Of a stretch of 64,000 nt of DNA, positions 1,751 to 29,616 are shown piece after piece. The stretch is taken from IMG/VR virus record IMGVR_UViG_3300042946_000906. The stretch is one strand, 5' to 3'. The notes beneath the pieces were generated by a model. It was not told the DNA's origin and searched no databases. It saw only the letters and a program-made list of their open reading frames with translations. How positions within the stretch are numbered: the first letter of the stretch is position 1; each line of letters starts with the position of its first letter. This DNA is from a virus. Its lineage: Duplodnaviria; Heunggongvirae; Uroviricota; Caudoviricetes. A program made the translations under genes and the position numbers.

Positions 1751-1823
1751 AGTCAGGTGGCTCAATTGGTTAAAGCGACAGCTGAAAAGATGTGGATTGC
1801 AGGTTCGAATCCTGTCCTGACTA
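1751..1823 (+). tRNA. tRNA-like element (Phe-like GAA anticodon context, atypical 6-nt anticodon loop; possibly a pseudo-tRNA)
   Basis: 7-bp acceptor pairing AGTCAGG/CCTGACT. U8. D-arm GCTC-AATTGGTTA-AAGC with a GG dinucleotide. Canonical T-arm GCAGG-TTCGAAT-CCTGT. Discriminator A. 73 nt. Anticodon arm ACAGC-UGAAAA-GAUGU has one G·A mismatch and only a 6-nt loop, so this is not a clean call. Confidence 0.4.
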
Positions 1824-1840
1824 CTAAAATAACAAACCAT

Positions 1841-22437: not shown

Positions 22438-24420
22438 ATGTCAATGATGTCACGTAATAAGAAATTTTGGATAATGGATTACGAAACAATTGTAAATTGT
22501 TTTGTAGCTGTGTTTACTGGATATTCTTCTGGTGAAACCCGGATCTTTGTTGTAAACAGAGATAGAAATGACCTGCCTGAGTTTCTTGATTTTTTAGATG
22601 AAAACATTGAACATAAAGATTGGCATTTTGGATATAATAATCTTGCATTTGACTCTCAAATAACTGAATTCATACTTGAAAACAGAAATGAGTTGTCGTA
22701 TTTGTCTTCTAATGATTTTACAGCAACAATTGCACAATATGCAGGTTCTGTTATTGCAAAATCTAATAGAGGAGAATGGTTAGATTATCCAGAGTTTAAG
22801 TTGTCTATTCCGTGTGTTGATATATTCAAACTCAACCACTGGGATGGTACAGCAAAAAGATGTTCTTTAAAATGGATACAGTTTTCTATGGATTGGTTTA
22901 ATGTTGAAGAGATGCCTCATCATCATACAGAACCGGTTCTTACTGATCAAGTATTAGATTCTATTGTAAGATATTGTATTAATGACGTAAGGTCAACTAA
23001 ACAAATATTTGTTCTTCGAAATCCTAAAGGAGAGCAAGTAATGGCAAGTCAAATAAATTTACGTGCTCAATTGAGTGCAGATTATAGATTAAATCTGTAT
23101 TCTGCAAGTGAGCCGCGTATAAGTAAAGAGATGTTTCTTCACTTCTTATCTGAAAAATTAGGAAAAGATAAGAAGGAAATCAGAGTAATGAAGACAGAAC
23201 GTGATAACGTAGTTGTCAGAAACATTATCTTACCAAGTATCAAGTTTGAAACGCCAGAATTTAATGGCGTGTTCAACTGGTTCAAAAGTCAAATAGTAAA
23301 TACTATGATTGACATTGAACAAGCAGAAACAAAAGGTCCTAAATACAGGATGATGTTCAAAGGAGTTCCTACTGACTATGGTTTAGGTGGTTTGCACGGA
23401 TGTATCAGATCTGGTATATACAGTGCAGGTAATGGTAAAAAGATTTTGTCTGCTGACGTGACGTCTTTTTATCCTAATCTTGCTATTAAAAATGAATGGT
23501 CTCCAGCGCATATTCCTAAAAGAGACTTTTGTGAACTGTATGAATGGTTCTTTGAAGAGAGAAAGAAATATCCAAAAACTTCTCCTTTGAATTATCTATT
23601 CAAAATTATATTGAATTCTACTTATGGATTAAGTAAAAATAAGTATTCGTTTTTGTATGATCCTGAATTTACTTTCAGAATTACCATCAATGGACAATTA
23701 CAACTATCAATGTTGTATGAGATGATAGCAACCAGAATCCCTGGTGCTCAACCACTTATGCAAAATACTGATGGTTTGGAGTTTCTTGTAGATGAACAAG
23801 ATGAAAAGTTATTTTATGAAATCTGTAAAGAGTGGGAAGAGTTGACATCTTTACAACTTGAAACAGTAGAATATGACAAGATGATTATTGGCGATGTGAA
23901 TAACTACATTGCTGTATACACAGATGGAAAAACAAAATGCAAAGGTCGTTTTGAATTTGAAGAGCTGGCACTTCATAAAAACAAATCTCATCTAATAATA
24001 CCAAAAGCGTTGTATGCATATTTCATATTTGGAAAAGATCCAAAAGATTTTTTACAAGAAAATAGAAATATATTTGACTATTGCGCAGGAGCAAAACTAA
24101 AAGGAAATTGGTTCTTTGAAAAAAGAGGTGTAGTAAATGGTGAGTATCAAGTAGAAAAACTGCAAAGACTTGTTAGATATTATATTTCCAATACAGGAGT
24201 CAAGCTAATTAAGTGTAATCCGGATGGTCGCGAAATACAATTGGAAAGTGGTAAGCACATGCAGACAATATTTAATCTGCATGAAGAAAAACCATGGAAC
24301 CAATATGATATAAACGAAAAGTATTATTTAGATAAGATTTATGATGAGATTCAAAAGATAGAGAAGTCATCTATCATATTACCTCAAGATAAAGTAAATC
24401 AACAATTAAGTCTCTTTTAA
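22438..24420 (+). CDS. family B DNA polymerase with 3'-5' exonuclease domain
   Basis: Exo I MDYET, Exo II YNNLAFDSQ, Exo III YCINDV, Pol A SADVTSFYPNL (DxxSLYPS), Pol B KIILNSTYGL (KxxxNSxYG), Pol C QNTDGLEF (DTDS-like, see findings). Confidence 0.85.
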   Translation: MSMMSRNKKFWIMDYETIVNCFVAVFTGYSSGETRIFVVNRDRNDLPEFLDFLDENIEHKDWHFGYNNLAFDSQITEFILENRNELSYLSSNDFTATIAQYAGSVIAKSNRGEWLDYPEFKLSIPCVDIFKLNHWDGTAKRCSLKWIQFSMDWFNVEEMPHHHTEPVLTDQVLDSIVRYCINDVRSTKQIFVLRNPKGEQVMASQINLRAQLSADYRLNLYSASEPRISKEMFLHFLSEKLGKDKKEIRVMKTERDNVVVRNIILPSIKFETPEFNGVFNWFKSQIVNTMIDIEQAETKGPKYRMMFKGVPTDYGLGGLHGCIRSGIYSAGNGKKILSADVTSFYPNLAIKNEWSPAHIPKRDFCELYEWFFEERKKYPKTSPLNYLFKIILNSTYGLSKNKYSFLYDPEFTFRITINGQLQLSMLYEMIATRIPGAQPLMQNTDGLEFLVDEQDEKLFYEICKEWEELTSLQLETVEYDKMIIGDVNNYIAVYTDGKTKCKGRFEFEELALHKNKSHLIIPKALYAYFIFGKDPKDFLQENRNIFDYCAGAKLKGNWFFEKRGVVNGEYQVEKLQRLVRYYISNTGVKLIKCNPDGREIQLESGKHMQTIFNLHEEKPWNQYDINEKYYLDKIYDEIQKIEKSSIILPQDKVNQQLSLF

Positions 24421-24422
24421 AA

Positions 24423-25238
24423 ATGAAAAGAACAGTAAATGGCATGATTGCCTATGGTAAAATGTTAAGCACACCATTACCAGCAAGAACAAAAACATAT
24501 ACTCCTATCTCTCACAAAGACGTTGTCAGTCGTGTGAGAGCAGAAATAGCTGCAGCAGGATATATAATTACTGGCGAAGATTACAAGTGCACACAAGATG
24601 GCACTGTAGCAATTGGAAATTTTAAATTGAATTATAAAGCGGATCCAGATGTTGAGTTATCTGCAAACTTTATGAATTCATATAATAAACAATATGCATT
24701 TAGATTCTCACTTGGAGGATTGGTAAAAGTATGTATGAACGGTATGATGTTATCAAACAGTAAGTTTGGGGCATACAAACGCGTTCACAAAGGTGCTGCA
24801 GATATACTTGCAGCTGGTAAAATCTCTGAGTTTATAAAAGATTCAGAAGAGTATTGGACAACATTGATACAGCATAAAGATGCTTTAAAAGATCGAATTA
24901 TAACAAAACCAATTGCATTTATTATTCTTGGTAAATTATTCTTTGAACATGAACTACTGACAACTATGCAGTTAAACATGATTAAGAAAGAAATGGAAAA
25001 ACCAAGTTTTGAATACAATGCAGATCCTGATAGTGCTTGGGTATTGTATAATCACATTACTCTCGCATTAAAAGAAGCACATCCTTCTACCTGGATGGAT
25101 GATCAAGTAAAAATGCATCAAGTATTTTGTGACACTTTTGGTATAGACATTGATTCTGATACAGAACCTGAAGAAGACAGTGCCGGTTATACAGTTGCTG
25201 ATCGAGAAGAGGAAATAGAAGAACTATTACCATTTTAA
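24423..25238 (+). CDS. hypothetical protein (271 aa)
   Basis: Long co-oriented ORF directly after the polymerase. Confidence 0.55.
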   Translation: MKRTVNGMIAYGKMLSTPLPARTKTYTPISHKDVVSRVRAEIAAAGYIITGEDYKCTQDGTVAIGNFKLNYKADPDVELSANFMNSYNKQYAFRFSLGGLVKVCMNGMMLSNSKFGAYKRVHKGAADILAAGKISEFIKDSEEYWTTLIQHKDALKDRIITKPIAFIILGKLFFEHELLTTMQLNMIKKEMEKPSFEYNADPDSAWVLYNHITLALKEAHPSTWMDDQVKMHQVFCDTFGIDIDSDTEPEEDSAGYTVADREEEIEELLPF

Positions 25239-25241
25239 TAA

Positions 25242-25535
25242 TTGGGGAGTGTAAAAGCTCCCCTAATTTTAGTTATTATGAAAATAAATGAGCAATTGCA
25301 AGACATGATAGATCTTAAAACAAGATTACAAAAAGTACAAGAAAAAATAGAACTTTTAAATTCAGAACCAATGGTTGATGTTATATTACAAGCAATTATC
25401 AAAGTGAGTAAAAAAGATACATCTCACAATGTAGTTCAGTTTACAAAGCGATATCTACGTAGATATTACAATATCGATATAGATTCAAAATCGGTAAGAG
25501 ACAGAATAAAATCAATAACAAAACAATTAAAGTAA
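25242..25535 (+). CDS. hypothetical Lys-rich helical protein (97 aa)
   Basis: Co-oriented ORF. Confidence 0.45.
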   Translation: MGSVKAPLILVIMKINEQLQDMIDLKTRLQKVQEKIELLNSEPMVDVILQAIIKVSKKDTSHNVVQFTKRYLRRYYNIDIDSKSVRDRIKSITKQLK

Positions 25536-25753
25536 TGACAAAAAATTTAAAACTTGACCAAGCATTATCACTTTTGCAAACTGGTAATACTGTAACCAGA
25601 AATGAATGGAAAACAAGAGGTGAATTTCTTTATAGTGCAGATGAAGGTAAAACTATTGAGTTAAAAAATGCAGAAGGAACAATTGATCCAAATTGGCAAC
25701 CTGACGAAATTGATACAATCGCTGAAGATTGGGAAATGATTAATTCTTTATAA
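25535..25753 (+). CDS. DUF2829/Tad2-like small protein (candidate anti-Thoeris sponge)
   Basis: LDQALSLLQTGNTVTRNEWKTRGEFLY resembles the DUF2829 N-terminal signature (fgeAL.aLK.GkkV.R.gW...g.yi). C-terminal AEDWEMI resembles the family's (A/E)DW(E/I)V end. Comparison is from memory, not a search. Confidence 0.4.
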   Translation: MTKNLKLDQALSLLQTGNTVTRNEWKTRGEFLYSADEGKTIELKNAEGTIDPNWQPDEIDTIAEDWEMINSL

Positions 25754-25754
25754 G

Positions 25755-26477
25755 ATGATTATAGGTATAAATGGTAAAATAGGATCTGGTAAAGACACTA
25801 TTGGAGAAATTATACGAGGTCTTTGTTTAACAAATAAAGATCAAGTATTTGAAATCAAAAAGTTTGCTGGTAAACTAAAACAAATTGGCAGTATACTATC
25901 AGGTATTCCTGTAGAGAAATTTGAAGACCAAGAGTTTAAACAAAAACATATGGGTCTTGAGTGGGAAATGACATACAGAGAGTTTCTTCAAAAACTTGGT
26001 ACAGAAGCAATGCGTGATGGATTACATACAAATGTATGGGTAAATGCTTTGTTTGCTGATTATAGACTATGGAGTGATGGAAGTAAAGATTGGTATCCAA
26101 ACTGGATTATAACAGACATGAGATTTCCTAATGAGATGGAAGCTATTGTAGAGAAAGGTGGACTCACTATTAGAGTGGTTAGAAACAATAATGCTAAATA
26201 CTCAGATAAGAAAGTTAAATCCATACTTAAAGATATGGGTTATGTTGACTTATCAGATGGTGTTTGGGAAGAATTGGCTATCAATGAAGGATTCACCTGG
26301 TTTGAAACATTTAAGTTATGGACATGGGATGAAGATGATAACAATAATGAAGCTTTGCATCCTTCAGAAACAGCATTAGATGATGCTGAGTTTGATTATG
26401 AAATTATCAATGATGGTTCTATTGAAGATCTTGTAACAAAAGTTAGAGAAATACTAACAAAAGAAAATATAATATGA
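25755..26477 (+). CDS. P-loop nucleotide kinase (dNMP kinase-like)
   Basis: N-terminal Walker A GINGKIGSGKDT right at residue 4, as in phage dNMP kinases. Confidence 0.5.
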   Translation: MIIGINGKIGSGKDTIGEIIRGLCLTNKDQVFEIKKFAGKLKQIGSILSGIPVEKFEDQEFKQKHMGLEWEMTYREFLQKLGTEAMRDGLHTNVWVNALFADYRLWSDGSKDWYPNWIITDMRFPNEMEAIVEKGGLTIRVVRNNNAKYSDKKVKSILKDMGYVDLSDGVWEELAINEGFTWFETFKLWTWDEDDNNNEALHPSETALDDAEFDYEIINDGSIEDLVTKVREILTKENII

Positions 26478-27202
26478 AAACATTTGTAATAGGAGATGTG
26501 CACGGTAATCATCGTGCACTTCTACAATGTCTTGAGAAATCAGGATTCGATAAAGAAAATGACAAATTAATATCGCTTGGCGATATTGCAGACGGTTGGA
26601 GCGAGGTTTCTGAGTGTGTTGACACTCTGTTATCAATTAAAAATTTGATTGCCATACGAGGCAATCATGACGTTTGGTGTTATGATTGGTTTGAATACGG
26701 AAGAACACCTCTTATTTGGTCAGCGCAAGGTGGTGCTGCGACTATGGAAGGTTATGTTCGCACTGGTAAACTTGTTGAACAGTCTCATAAAGATTTTTGG
26801 AAAAACCAAATAGACTATTACATTGATGATGAAAACAGATTGTTTATTCATGGCGGATGGGATTACATGGAAGGATTTCCACGTGGTGCAATGTTGTCAG
26901 TAAATGCAGGAAGTCTTGCTAAAGAATGTCATTGGGACAGAAGTTTATTAATGGGTGCTAAATCTGCATTTGGTAACAAGATGTCAAGAAATGGTAAGTT
27001 CAAAGCACTTGAAGAATTTAAAGAAATCTACATTGGACACACTGCAGAAAATGATGGACCTAATCAGTATGGAAATCTATGGAACCTGGACACAGGTGCT
27101 GGATGGAATGGTAAACTTACAATCATGGATGTTGACAGTAAAGAGTTTTGGCAATCTGACTTTGCTACTTTATTGTATCCTGAAGAACGCGGAAGAGGAT
27201 AA
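26474..27202 (+). CDS. Ser/Thr protein phosphatase-type metallophosphoesterase (lambda PPase-like)
   Basis: GDVHG (motif I), GDIADGW (GDxxDRG-like), GNHD (GNHE-like), followed by the HGG and GH motifs. Confidence 0.75.
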   Translation: MKTFVIGDVHGNHRALLQCLEKSGFDKENDKLISLGDIADGWSEVSECVDTLLSIKNLIAIRGNHDVWCYDWFEYGRTPLIWSAQGGAATMEGYVRTGKLVEQSHKDFWKNQIDYYIDDENRLFIHGGWDYMEGFPRGAMLSVNAGSLAKECHWDRSLLMGAKSAFGNKMSRNGKFKALEEFKEIYIGHTAENDGPNQYGNLWNLDTGAGWNGKLTIMDVDSKEFWQSDFATLLYPEERGRG

Positions 27203-28053
27203 TGGAAATAAAAAAACAGAAAACAAAAACTTTAGTTACCAGAGATAATGGGAGGAGTAGCGATGCTATTTCTCCCAATTTTATTTATGGATGTTTAGGT
27301 GGATGCATGAAATCGTATTGTTATGTAGGTAGATTTAACAACAACAAGTTATTTCTAAATGAAAACACAGAACAAATATTAGCATCTATAAACAAATGGG
27401 CAGAACCACAGCCAATGCCTAAGATACCTAATCAAATTGATGACAAGTATTACTGTATTGATATTGGATGCAGTACGGATGTAGCATTACATGGTAAATA
27501 TTACCAGTGGCAACAAGTGTTTGAGTTTTTTAACACGCATCCAAAATTAAAAAGCACTTTTGCTACAAAGTATCCTACTAAATTTAGATTAGATGATTAT
27601 ACTCTGGTTCCTGGTAAACACAGGATCAGAGTAAGTTTGATGCCTCAGAAATATGCAGATGTACTGGAACCAAATACAGATAGTATTGCTGATAGAATTG
27701 CAATGATTCCTAAGCTGCAAGAGAAGATGGAAGTACATATTAATTTTAGTCCTATCATATATGAAGAAGGATGGTTAGACGAGTATATAAATCTTTTTGA
27801 GTTACTAAAAACTGCAGGTATTAATGTACCATGCGAATGTATCTTCTTGACGTATAATGATACATCTTATCAGAACGCAGATGACGCTGTAAACGCCTTG
27901 TGCTGGAAACCAGAAATACAAGAAAAGAAAGATTCGCAATATGCTGCAGATAACATTAGATACAAATATCAGTTAAAAGCAAAAATGATTGATGATTTTA
28001 AAAAACTGTATGCTGAGTATTTTGATCCTAAAAACATTAGGTATATATTTTAA
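27202..28053 (+). CDS. hypothetical protein with SplB/radical-SAM-like Cys cluster (283 aa)
   Basis: NFIYGCLGGCMKSYCYVGR resembles the COG1533/SplB motif (npyrGCshgCiYCY) but with C-x3-C-x4-C spacing. Confidence 0.5.
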   Translation: MEIKKQKTKTLVTRDNGRSSDAISPNFIYGCLGGCMKSYCYVGRFNNNKLFLNENTEQILASINKWAEPQPMPKIPNQIDDKYYCIDIGCSTDVALHGKYYQWQQVFEFFNTHPKLKSTFATKYPTKFRLDDYTLVPGKHRIRVSLMPQKYADVLEPNTDSIADRIAMIPKLQEKMEVHINFSPIIYEEGWLDEYINLFELLKTAGINVPCECIFLTYNDTSYQNADDAVNALCWKPEIQEKKDSQYAADNIRYKYQLKAKMIDDFKKLYAEYFDPKNIRYIF

Positions 28054-28129: not shown

Positions 28130-28546
28130 CTAAATCTTCGCAAGTTGGAAATGCATTCCATCCTTACGTGTCCACGTACCTCCCCAATCAAATCCTGCAT
28201 CTGTAAAACATTTTACAAATCCTGCAGATAACACTGGTGTTTTACCAAGACCATTCCATGCAGCATTAACATCAATAGCAATTGCCCATGAGTGTAATGA
28301 CATGCTTGTTAAACCTCTTTTCTTTCTGATATTAAAACATCCATCCCATGTTTTTAGTTCTTTTACAAAACCTGTTGCAATAAGATTTTTAAATGCTTGC
28401 GTGAGAGGCGCAACTAAATCTTTGTTACAATACAATCTTTTAGGTATAACACCTATTTCTAATTCTGTTGGTACATCCCATAGAATCATGTTGCGTTCTA
28501 ATGTAGGATCACCATATTTTTTTAAACATTGTGCACTTGTTACCAT
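28130..28546 (-). CDS. endolysin, peptidase M15 (L-alanyl-D-glutamate / D-Ala-D-Ala carboxypeptidase family)
   Basis: Zn-binding motifs SLHSWAIAIDV (H..D) and DGMHFQ (the family's DxxHxE-type signature). Confidence 0.7.
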   Translation of the reverse strand: MVTSAQCLKKYGDPTLERNMILWDVPTELEIGVIPKRLYCNKDLVAPLTQAFKNLIATGFVKELKTWDGCFNIRKKRGLTSMSLHSWAIAIDVNAAWNGLGKTPVLSAGFVKCFTDAGFDWGGTWTRKDGMHFQLAKI

Positions 28547-28552
28547 TGGTTA

Positions 28553-29176
28553 TTATTTTTTAAATGAAATTTTCCAGTATGCTCCAACACCATAAGTAAA
28601 TGTACCGTCAAAGTTTATTCCAATATTTGCTTGGTATATTTGGTCTTTTTTGGTTTTGTATAATACGCCTGGAGTTAATAATTGAACAGCATTTTTATCA
28701 CCAAAGATATTTCCTCCTATGTATAATTGACGTACAGGTTCTTTTTCTTTAGTTATAGTTACCGTTTTTGTCACAAAAGGTATTTTGTAATCGTATATTT
28801 TGGTTCTTTTACCAAGTTTGTTTAACCAAACAGTATCAATTACAACAATAGTTCCAAGACTGTCAAGTTTTAAAGTATCTTGATAAACTCTTCGAGCAAT
28901 GTGTTGTTTAAGTAAATAGTTAAATCTTGCTCTGCAGGTGTCTATATGCTCACCTGAAGTGTATTCTGGCGCATCTGGTTTTACAGTATCATGTATTGTA
29001 TGATATACAGTATTTTGTACAGTATCATGCACATGCTTGTAAACTGTATCGTATTTTATCTCTACTTTAGGATCAGCAACAACTACTTTATCTCCTGAAC
29101 AAGATCTTTGTAGAAAAATTATTAGGACAAGAAGTCCTATTAATATATAATTAAAGTATGGTTTTATATTTTTCAT
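28553..29176 (-). CDS. membrane-anchored lysis-cassette protein (207 aa; spanin-like or other lysis accessory)
   Basis: N-terminal TM/signal anchor (YILIGLLVLIIFLQRSCSG) then a soluble domain; sits between holin-like and endolysin genes; 4-nt overlap with the holin-like gene. Confidence 0.45.
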   Translation of the reverse strand: MKNIKPYFNYILIGLLVLIIFLQRSCSGDKVVVADPKVEIKYDTVYKHVHDTVQNTVYHTIHDTVKPDAPEYTSGEHIDTCRARFNYLLKQHIARRVYQDTLKLDSLGTIVVIDTVWLNKLGKRTKIYDYKIPFVTKTVTITKEKEPVRQLYIGGNIFGDKNAVQLLTPGVLYKTKKDQIYQANIGINFDGTFTYGVGAYWKISFKK

Positions 29177-29616
29177 TCTTGCGGGTTTGTTATATCAACG
29201 TCTTCTTTTACTTCTCTTGCTCTTCGTATGGCGTTTTTAATAATCTTCCATATTTTTATATTAAGAGCCTCTTCTATATTTTCTTTAATTGAAGTTCCTT
29301 CAATAAGAATTATTACAATGCAAACAAGTTTAGTAGCAAAATATTGCACTGAAATAAGACGAATAAGTAAATCATTTAACAAAAACTCATCTATTGGAAA
29401 AAGTAAGACAATACATATCTCATACAACAACATTTTACTAATAATGTTAGACAATATTCTACTTCTAATAGAACTCCAACCTCTTAATTTTACTGATCTA
29501 AATATTCCTGTGAATGTGTCTAATAAAACAATTAACCCAACAGTAATAACCAATCCTGTGATTGGTGAAAAGAAAAGTAACAGTCCTGCTAATGCATTTA
29601 ATAGGTACGTTTTCAT
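29173..29616 (-). CDS. holin-like multi-TM membrane protein (147 aa)
   Basis: Three to four hydrophobic helices with a charged C-terminus (RRAREVKEDVDITNPQE); first gene of the lysis cassette. Confidence 0.5.
   Translation of the reverse strand: MKTYLLNALAGLLLFFSPITGLVITVGLIVLLDTFTGIFRSVKLRGWSSIRSRILSNIISKMLLYEICIVLLFPIDEFLLNDLLIRLISVQYFATKLVCIVIILIEGTSIKENIEEALNIKIWKIIKNAIRRAREVKEDVDITNPQE

Follow-up and report, generated by a model that had tools for sequence, protein, structure and literature searches.

The window analysed in this study is the whole 64,000-nucleotide stretch, and it belongs to a low-GC, uncultured phage lineage. The left side of the locus carries a DNA polymerase gene (positions 22438-24420; phrog_1252, E 5.5e-134) and a DUF932 gene (24423-25238), with a PD-(D/E)XK exonuclease gene and two genes of unknown function further upstream. 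Between the DUF932 gene and an 85-aa ORF lies a terminator-like hairpin with a T-rich tail, GGGGAGTGTAAAAGCTCCCC (25244..25263, plus strand). The 85-aa ORF (25278..25535, plus strand) starts with ATG and is conserved across the phage group. A Tad2-like gene of 72 aa follows (25535..25753, plus strand, ATG to TAA), which encodes a minimal PF11195 domain without the insertion discussed below. To its right is a dNMP kinase gene (25755..26477, plus strand; PF21448 DNMK, E 8e-12; phrog_139, E 2e-46), and further downstream are genes for a calcineurin-like phosphoesterase and an SPL-like protein, an opposite-strand lysis cassette and a ribonucleotide reductase gene. The sequence-only reading had placed the 72-aa ORF among small early genes between the polymerase and the nucleotide kinase. 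The position is right, but "among small early genes" was an overstatement, as the ORF has one small neighbour only and its early expression is presumptive.

The stop codon of the 85-aa ORF overlaps the start codon of the Tad2-like gene by one base (TAATG), and the ATG of the dNMP kinase gene starts 2 nt after the Tad2-like stop in the same co-directional gene string. Because of the TAATG overlap, the 85-aa ORF and the Tad2-like gene are probably co-transcribed and translationally coupled. Gene calling on the related contigs gave the upstream ORF a length of 85-86 aa from this ATG in every case, and homologues are present in many of the 44 related loci described below; its only profile match, to Rep3_N, was weak (E 0.004) and below the cut-off. 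A longer version of this ORF (97 aa, from TTG at 25242) was rejected, given that the hairpin occupies 25244-25263 and all the relatives are called from the ATG at 25278. The terminator scan found this hairpin to be unique in the window, with 0 expected by chance. It was invariant in diverged relatives (L001, L007, L010 and L011) whose coding dS reached up to 0.5-0.9, and it may serve as a transcript boundary or attenuator ahead of the small-gene pair. A sigma-70 promoter scan showed no enrichment over shuffled sequences (100 found vs. 97 expected) and is uninformative as to expression timing.

The 72-aa ORF translates to MTKNLKLDQALSLLQTGNTVTRNEWKTRGEFLYSADEGKTIELKNAEGTIDPNWQPDEIDTIAEDWEMINSL. 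Residues 10-25, ALSLLQTGNTVTRNEW, fit the pattern ALxLLxxGxxVxRxxW exactly, and AEDWEMI occupies residues 63-69, followed by NSL. Thus, the position, the size of 72 aa and both motifs that had been read from the sequence were all correct (ATG at 25535, TAA ending at 25753, plus strand). The protein has a net charge of -7 and a pI of 4.3. No ORF of at least 30 aa overlaps 25535-25753 on the opposite strand. Exact or near-exact copies with the same neighbours were found on metagenomic contigs (JGI, ENA and Logan), together with four further diverged orthologue clusters (74-89% identity), all of exactly 72 codons. The reading frame of exactly 72 aa was kept in every orthologue. We calculated substitution rates by the Nei-Gojobori method among five diverged metagenomic orthologues; dN/dS was 0.13-0.29 in all pairs at a dS of 0.29-1.27, and the comparisons of the window gene with the orthologues gave a dN/dS of 0.17-0.24 at a dS of 0.29-0.94. 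The dN/dS of 0.13-0.29 across the orthologue pairs indicates that the ORF is a real gene under purifying selection. The opposite reading, in which both the ORF and its motif resemblance are due to chance, could appeal to the short length of 72 aa and to the existence of a repeat-driven match artefact (see below). It is refuted by the Pfam match over the full domain (E 1.1e-11), by the dN/dS of 0.13-0.29 with dS up to 1.27, by the frame of exactly 72 aa in all orthologues and by a confident fold prediction, and we give it practically no weight.

We then considered the family to which the protein belongs. PF11195 (Tad2-like/DUF2829) was the sole Pfam match in hmmscan; it scored 45.5 bits (E 1.1e-11), the gathering cut-off being 25, with residues 7-68 aligned to positions 3-72 of the 73-position profile. 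The same label was already precomputed for all five orthologue clusters. When the single sequence was compared with PDB sequences by phmmer, it matched SPO1 Tad2 (E 3e-5), HgmTad2/AcrIIA7 (1.2e-4), ModTad2 (7e-4) and SptTad2 (3e-3). A profile built from 15 sequences (nine distant relatives in addition to the gene and its orthologues) matched all seven distinct solved Tad2 sequences with E values of 1.2e-19 to 6.6e-23, and nothing else. In an alignment of relatives, the framework residues A10, G17, W25, W54, A63, D65 and W66 were invariant and L11, R22, P56 and D60 were at least 90% conserved; W25, W54, D65 and W66 were invariant across the 105-sequence alignment.

An AlphaFold2 monomer model built on this 105-sequence alignment reached a pLDDT of 92.9 and a pTM of 0.81. 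Its elements (H7-15, E19-22, H23-28, E31-35, E40-44, H58-62 and E66-69) follow the Tad2 order of helix α1, strands, the short W-loop helix, strands, α3 and the last strand. In a Foldseek search of the PDB with this model, ranks 1-24 were all Tad2 chains (TMq 0.72-0.81, probability 1.00), and at rank 25 the probability fell to 0.38. The BFVD matches were nearly all phage proteins labelled "Thoeris anti-defense 2-like". The DUF2829/Tad2 assignment made from the motifs was therefore borne out by a PF11195 score above the cut-off and by the Tad2-only top 24 in Foldseek; the profile search and the structure search, either of which could have spoken against the assignment, both returned the family. 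By profile and by fold, the 72-aa protein belongs to the Tad2 family.

Several other matches were set aside. The best phmmer matches in the PDB were to designed WD40 proteins ("WRAP-T"), and we rejected them as sums of 7-8 weak repeats with no single significant stretch. A representative sequence search likewise returned large multi-stretch matches, namely P0012 (WD40/STAND), P0014 and P0018 (TPR/Sel1), P0016 and P0025 (propellers) and P0021. These are repeat proteins without PF11195 and were also rejected. The central segment of the 72-aa protein is the source of these summed weak matches to WD40, TPR and propeller repeat proteins. PHROGs gave families of unknown function only, plus a "transcriptional regulator" label (phrog_643) that we regarded as uninformative, the match being weak (E 1.8e-4). 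With the protein as tblastn query, GenBank phages yielded no more than three distant matches (30-32% identity), and megablast of the 8 kb around the gene gave no match there.

The distribution of the gene among related phages was examined by searching IMG/VR with the DUF932 protein, which yielded 44 phage loci; the identity was 59-99%, and the contigs were as long as 125 kb. A Tad2-like gene was present in only one of these loci (L015). In the alignment of the window with L014 and L015, a single clean gap of 226 columns with near-identical flanks appeared in L014, and L015 had the segment. The presence/absence cassette so defined is 226 bp long (25529..25754, plus strand) and extends from the end of the 85-aa ORF to the dNMP kinase ATG, the kinase gene being its right flank. 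L014 is otherwise very close to the window (polymerase 97% and DUF932 99% identical), with nothing separating its 85-aa ORF from the adjoining kinase gene. The same slot is occupied by a GIY-YIG/NUMOD1 endonuclease in L017 and L055 and by an HNH/NUMOD4 endonuclease in L054. Given the clean indel relative to L014, the presence in one of 44 loci and the use of the slot by homing endonucleases, the Tad2-like gene can be described as an optional cassette at a site prone to recombination. It is not needed for replication, a typical trait of counter-defence genes, and the distribution is consistent with a counter-defence role without proving it. A scan of genome contigs with the DUF932 protein for host inference gave no confirmed match.

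We next mapped the ligand-binding residues by aligning the window protein with the SPO1 Tad2, ModTad2 and HgmTad2 sequences. In SPO1 Tad2, the contacts to gcADPR or to water are W25, N26, I63, T65, D67, H71, W73, S76, T78 and D79 (10.1101/2023.05.01.538930). Three of the ten are identical in the window protein (SPO1 W25, W73 and D79 correspond to W25, W54 and D60), two are conservative (I63 to L43 and D67 to E47) and five are different (N26 to K26, T65 to N45, H71 to D51, S76 to D57 and T78 to I59). W25, W54 and D60 were invariant within the protein's own clade and in 98-99 of the 99 canonical homologues. In these 99 homologues, a sample biased toward the consensus, the residue after the first Trp was Asn in 98 and the next was Gly in 97, while the SPO1 S76 position was Ser in 97 and the T78 position was Thr in 76. 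In the sponges with a solved gcADPR or His-ADPR pocket, this Asn touches phosphates and hydroxyls and is contributed by both protomers. The window protein has no such W-N-G loop, as it reads W25-K26-T27. The position after W25 was always basic within the clade (Lys in five clusters and in L015, Arg in P0005), and a basic residue there suits the phosphate-binding, positively charged pocket described for sponges (PMC12265669). The S-x-T/S-D motif of α3 is also absent; the window has D57-E58-I59-D60, in which the Asp alone is retained, and the Ser and Thr positions are variable within the clade (D or T; I, T or E). The Asn and Ser positions lie within the multi-residue HgmTad2 mutants W21A/N22A and S90A/T92A/D93A, which lose gcADPR binding (10.1101/2023.11.15.567273).

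The second departure concerns the segment between β2 and the next core strand. The insertion found there in other members, of about 20 residues in SPO1 Tad2 and ModTad2 and 37 in HgmTad2, is absent and appears as a 37-column gap in the alignment. In the solved Tad2 structures, the β2-β3 segment carries helix α2, and α2 and β2 form a V-shaped dimer; the V-dimer insertion gives a homotetramer with two pockets. Because the missing segment includes this helix, the known Tad2 tetramer might not form in the window protein, and, with the insertion lacking, the protein is unlikely to have a second pocket that takes a cyclic dinucleotide or cUMP. All the segments that form the gcADPR pocket as defined previously (10.1101/2023.05.01.538930) are present, namely the β1-β2 loop, β4, the β4-α3 loop and α3. 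The domain lengths in the homologue sample went down to 65 residues, with a median of 94.5, which places the window protein at the short extreme. The closest relatives beyond its own small clade are insertion-less domains of 30-40% identity, and in such domains the position after the first Trp is not conserved.

The family membership and the retained framework lead us to lean towards a role as a sponge for an ADPR-type signal derived from a TIR protein. According to this proposal, several copies of the protein would assemble through helix α1, and a pocket would form between the protomers, lined by W25, W54, D60 and the clade-specific basic K26. This pocket would capture a small nucleotide that an immune enzyme of the host produces as an alarm signal, most plausibly the ADP-ribose-derived signal of a TIR-domain (Thoeris-type) system, and with the signal trapped the defence effector would never be switched on. 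The more specific claim of the earlier reading, an anti-Thoeris gcADPR sponge, held up with respect to the Tad2 family; its anti-Thoeris function and gcADPR specificity were not established, with five of the ten contacts changed and the insertion absent. A ligand that is specifically 1''-3' gcADPR is plausible but less likely than not, and carries roughly half of the weight that we give to an ADPR-type signal.

In fact, the ligand of the 72-aa protein cannot be inferred from its sequence. The ligands reported for Tad2 homologues include 3'cADPR or 2'cADPR, His-ADPR, N7-cADPR, cyclic dinucleotides, and cUMP and cCMP. Of five tested Tad2 homologues, four were inhibitors of type I Thoeris and one was an inhibitor of type II (10.1101/2023.05.01.538930; 10.1101/2024.01.03.573942). 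In the latter, ModTad2, the canonical pocket is largely conserved, yet the protein does not block type I Thoeris and binds His-ADPR instead (10.1101/2024.01.03.573942). Since ModTad2 keeps seven of the ten SPO1 contact residues without inhibiting type I Thoeris, pocket conservation is a weak predictor of the ligand in either direction. For other Tad2 homologues the system counteracted is type IV Thoeris, CBASS or Pycsar (PMC12393519). In the same source, a later screen of 84 proteins from three sponge families, 18 of them Tad2, found 65 to be active against at least one signalling system.

The principal competitor to the sponge role is a Tad2 fold put to another use, in which the protein would bind some other small molecule, or a protein belonging to the replication and nucleotide-metabolism module, or would be a weakly functional remnant. 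We consider this rather unlikely, but it has points in its favour. The protein has lost the oligomerisation insertion as well as the pocket Asn and Ser that are nearly invariant elsewhere, the insertion-less relatives share no conserved residue after the first Trp, and the surroundings are genes of nucleotide metabolism (dNMP kinase, phosphoesterase and ribonucleotide reductase); moreover, none of the assays in PMC12393519 showed activity for 19 of the 84 proteins from the sponge families. A remnant, however, is opposed by purifying selection (dN/dS 0.13-0.29), and a core role in replication is opposed by the dispensability of the gene in the near-identical phage L014. The strict retention of W25, W54, D60 and the AxDW tail also speaks against this alternative, and our literature search found no non-sponge function for the family except that of AcrIIA7. 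That exception is itself an alternative, as AcrIIA7 is a PF11195 protein, and the PDB chains 8kbi and 9kzr were matched by our profile. An anti-CRISPR of this type would hold tracrRNA or another structured RNA in the basic groove of a tetramer and so keep the Cas9 RNP from assembling, and a 2026 study reports tracrRNA binding through K58, K66, K71, K93 and R101 (pdAcrIIA7 numbering; PMC13133391). In the window protein, K58, K66 and K71 map to Q15, N23 and R28, and K93 and R101 fall in the absent insertion, such that one of the five basic residues is retained. The protein is strongly acidic (net -7, pI 4.3), and the anti-Cas9 activity of AcrIIA7 was not reproduced by another group (10.1101/2023.11.15.567273). 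We therefore hold an AcrIIA7-type activity to be highly improbable.

A sponge that takes up not a Thoeris signal but the cyclic nucleotides used by CBASS or Pycsar (cyclic dinucleotides, cUMP or cCMP) has precedents within the family. HgmTad2 and SptTad2 bind cGG, cGAMP or cUG (10.1101/2023.11.15.567273), and MoTad2 and Tad2_70 are described as binding cUMP and cCMP (PMC12393519). The structural basis of these activities speaks against such a role here. The cyclic-dinucleotide pocket of HgmTad2 is formed by the long insertion within the V-dimer (10.1101/2023.11.15.567273), which the window protein does not have, and the cUMP pocket of MoTad2 is predicted at the same V-dimer interface (PMC12393519); SPO1 Tad2, with its short insertion, bound no cyclic nucleotide among those tested. 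A cyclic-nucleotide sponge is thus improbable, though less so than the anti-CRISPR. Less unlikely than either, but still an outside prospect, is that the insertion-less core with a basic residue in place of the canonical Asn represents a distinct sponge subtype, with a non-canonical assembly and a signal beyond those assigned to Tad2. The assembly could be, for example, a simple α1-mediated dimer with one pocket, an arrangement that may be mimicked by the natural relatives with two or four domains in tandem, and the target could be, for example, the product of a recently catalogued, uncharacterised TIR system. Capture of a TIR-derived ADPR-type signal remains the reading we prefer.

The Tad2 family is well described and the close relatives are already labelled in Pfam, so one more member is in itself routine annotation. 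As far as its sequence allows, the 72-aa protein is a divergent, minimal, insertion-less new member of a known sponge family, and its recognition points to a predicted counter-defence capacity in a phage lineage that is uncultured and otherwise without annotation. A natural minimal Tad2 could reveal which parts of the architecture are needed for oligomerisation and for ligand capture, and the Asn-to-Lys pocket variant could show whether the specificity changes. The polymorphism of the cassette and the use of the slot by homing endonucleases point to a gene-exchange hot spot, in which other accessory genes might occur.

The best reference for the window protein is SPO1 Tad2 (gp34.65; PDB 8SME/8SMF/8SMG), the 1''-3' gcADPR sponge against type I Thoeris. 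The two proteins share the Pfam family, the fold (TMq 0.73-0.80) and about 30% identity, and both have the α1 motif, the same W25 numbering, the equivalents of W73 and D79, and the C-terminal AEDW tail. Both are small, acidic phage proteins (pI 4.3 for the window protein and 4.7 for SPO1 Tad2). SPO1 Tad2 is 89 aa long vs. 72 aa, and the window protein lacks the approximately 20-residue β2-β3 segment that includes the V-dimer α2. ModTad2/MoTad2 (PDB 8V3E/9EIB), from a Myroides prophage, is a sponge for His-ADPR (type II Thoeris) and cUMP (Pycsar). It has the same family and fold as the window protein (TMq 0.74-0.76) and illustrates that the ligand can switch while the W...W...D framework is kept; its W-N-G loop, S-x-S-D motif and extended insertion with extra pockets are all missing from the window protein. 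HgmTad2/AcrIIA7 (PDB 8KBI-8KBM, 9KZR) is a dual sponge for gcADPR and cyclic dinucleotides with reported tracrRNA binding. It has the core domain in common with the window protein (profile E 6.6e-23), which keeps the equivalents of W21, W87 and D93, as well as T82 (window T49). The 37-residue insertion with the cyclic-dinucleotide pocket and the basic surface set HgmTad2 apart from the insertion-less, strongly acidic window protein (net charge +1 and pI 7.9 vs. -7 and 4.3). The HgmTad2 residues N22, S90 and T92 have no equivalents in the window protein, and four of the five RNA-binding basic residues are missing too. The cyclic-dinucleotide cavity of HgmTad2 is built on the long β2-β5 insertion, with R31, S47, F70 and N85 (10.1101/2023.11.15.567273), and S47 and F70 have no counterpart in the window protein.

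The short form is not unique to the window protein, as evidenced by the 60-75-aa Tad2-like phage proteins in BFVD. In the literature, the supplementary tables of PMC12393519 aside, no test of a Tad2-like protein without the insertion came to light. Short or tandem relatives occur in Bacillus phage vB_BcoS-136 (A0A3G3BVE3, 75 aa), in Klebsiella phage KpS110 (A0A2K9VAK2, 60 aa) and in metagenomes (P0017, P0019, P0034, P0010, P0013 and P0015). Like the window protein, they have insertion-less cores of 60-76 residues and the pattern W...W-P-x-x-x-D-x-x-A-x-D-W; the residue after their first Trp is variable. They are the nearest relatives of the window protein beyond its clade, at 24-40% identity to it, and several carry 2-4 tandem copies per chain, whereas the window protein consists of a single domain.

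The 226-bp cassette that carries the Tad2-like gene lies in a variable slot, which is bounded by the 85-aa ORF on its upstream side and by the gene for dNMP kinase on its downstream side. We located this slot at positions 25529-25754 of the window and in three related phage contigs (L017, 6145-6726; L055, 6045-6785; L054, 6120-6653), and it was always directly downstream of the 85-aa ORF. The slot was empty in most of the related phages, and in others it was occupied by homing endonucleases of the GIY-YIG/NUMOD1 or HNH/NUMOD4 type. Therefore, the slot is a hot spot where cassettes are gained and lost. The dNMP kinase gene on its downstream side (25755-26477) was compared with its counterpart in L014 (5740-6381), the near-identical phage without the cassette. 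The two kinases shared only 51% identity, and the flanking polymerase and DUF932 genes of the same two phages were 97-99% identical. The N-termini of the kinases were nearly identical and the divergence was in the middle of the protein, a pattern which suggests, from the sequence comparison, a mosaic recombination boundary at or beside the cassette.

The 85-aa ORF on the upstream side of the slot (25278-25535, + strand) was kept throughout the phage group and contains the motif KRYLRRYYNIDxDSK. The ORF had no significant family match; its sole match, to the Rep3_N WH1 domain with an E-value of 0.004, fell below the cut-off. Upstream of this ORF and downstream of the DUF932 gene, a terminator-like hairpin, GGGGAGTGTAAAAGCTCCCC, followed by a T-rich tail, was found at 25244-25263 (+ strand). 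It occurs once in the window and was 100% conserved among relatives whose coding-region dS is 0.5-0.9. Because of this hairpin, the listed TTG start at 25242 was ruled out as wrong, and the true start of the 85-aa ORF is the ATG at 25278.

Downstream, the strongest terminator-like hairpin of the region was found at 27249-27277 (+ strand), with a 13-bp stem including 6 GC pairs. The SPL-like ORF (27202-28053) contains this hairpin at its 5' end. The hairpin may have a regulatory role, or the start annotated for this ORF may have been placed too far upstream. A small lysis cassette follows on the opposite strand (28130-29616, - strand), with the nucleotide-metabolism genes on one side and a ribonucleotide reductase gene on the other. 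As annotated from the syntenic contigs L001-L003, it comprises an endolysin (Peptidase_M15_4), a 207-aa ORF of unknown function and a holin (Phage_holin_4_1).

About 31 kb of the window (32751-63818, - strand) is taken up by six very large ORFs in one block, with lengths of 928, 1961, 3843, 1608, 871 and 1111 aa. The PHROGs search covered five of them and gave no match at E ≤ 1e-5. The Pfam search, which covered the ORFs other than the 3843-aa one, gave an SO2946-like C-terminal domain in the 928-aa ORF and a PD-(D/E)XK nuclease domain in the 1961-aa ORF, and no other match. ARAGORN also reported, at 1751-1824 (+ strand), a structure resembling a tRNA, to which it assigned no anticodon ('tRNA-???'). 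The structure overlaps the start of the ORF at 1742-2122, and the call could be a false positive.

Among the metagenomic Tad2-like proteins, P0036, P0037, P0043, P0047, P0059 and P0109 (approximately 165-175 aa) formed a two-domain group, in which a canonical Tad2 domain comes after a short degenerate N-terminal copy lacking the second Trp motif. Another protein, P0013, carries four insertion-less Tad2-like copies. The two-domain group and the four-copy P0013 are naturally occurring covalent 'oligomers' of the Tad2-like domain.
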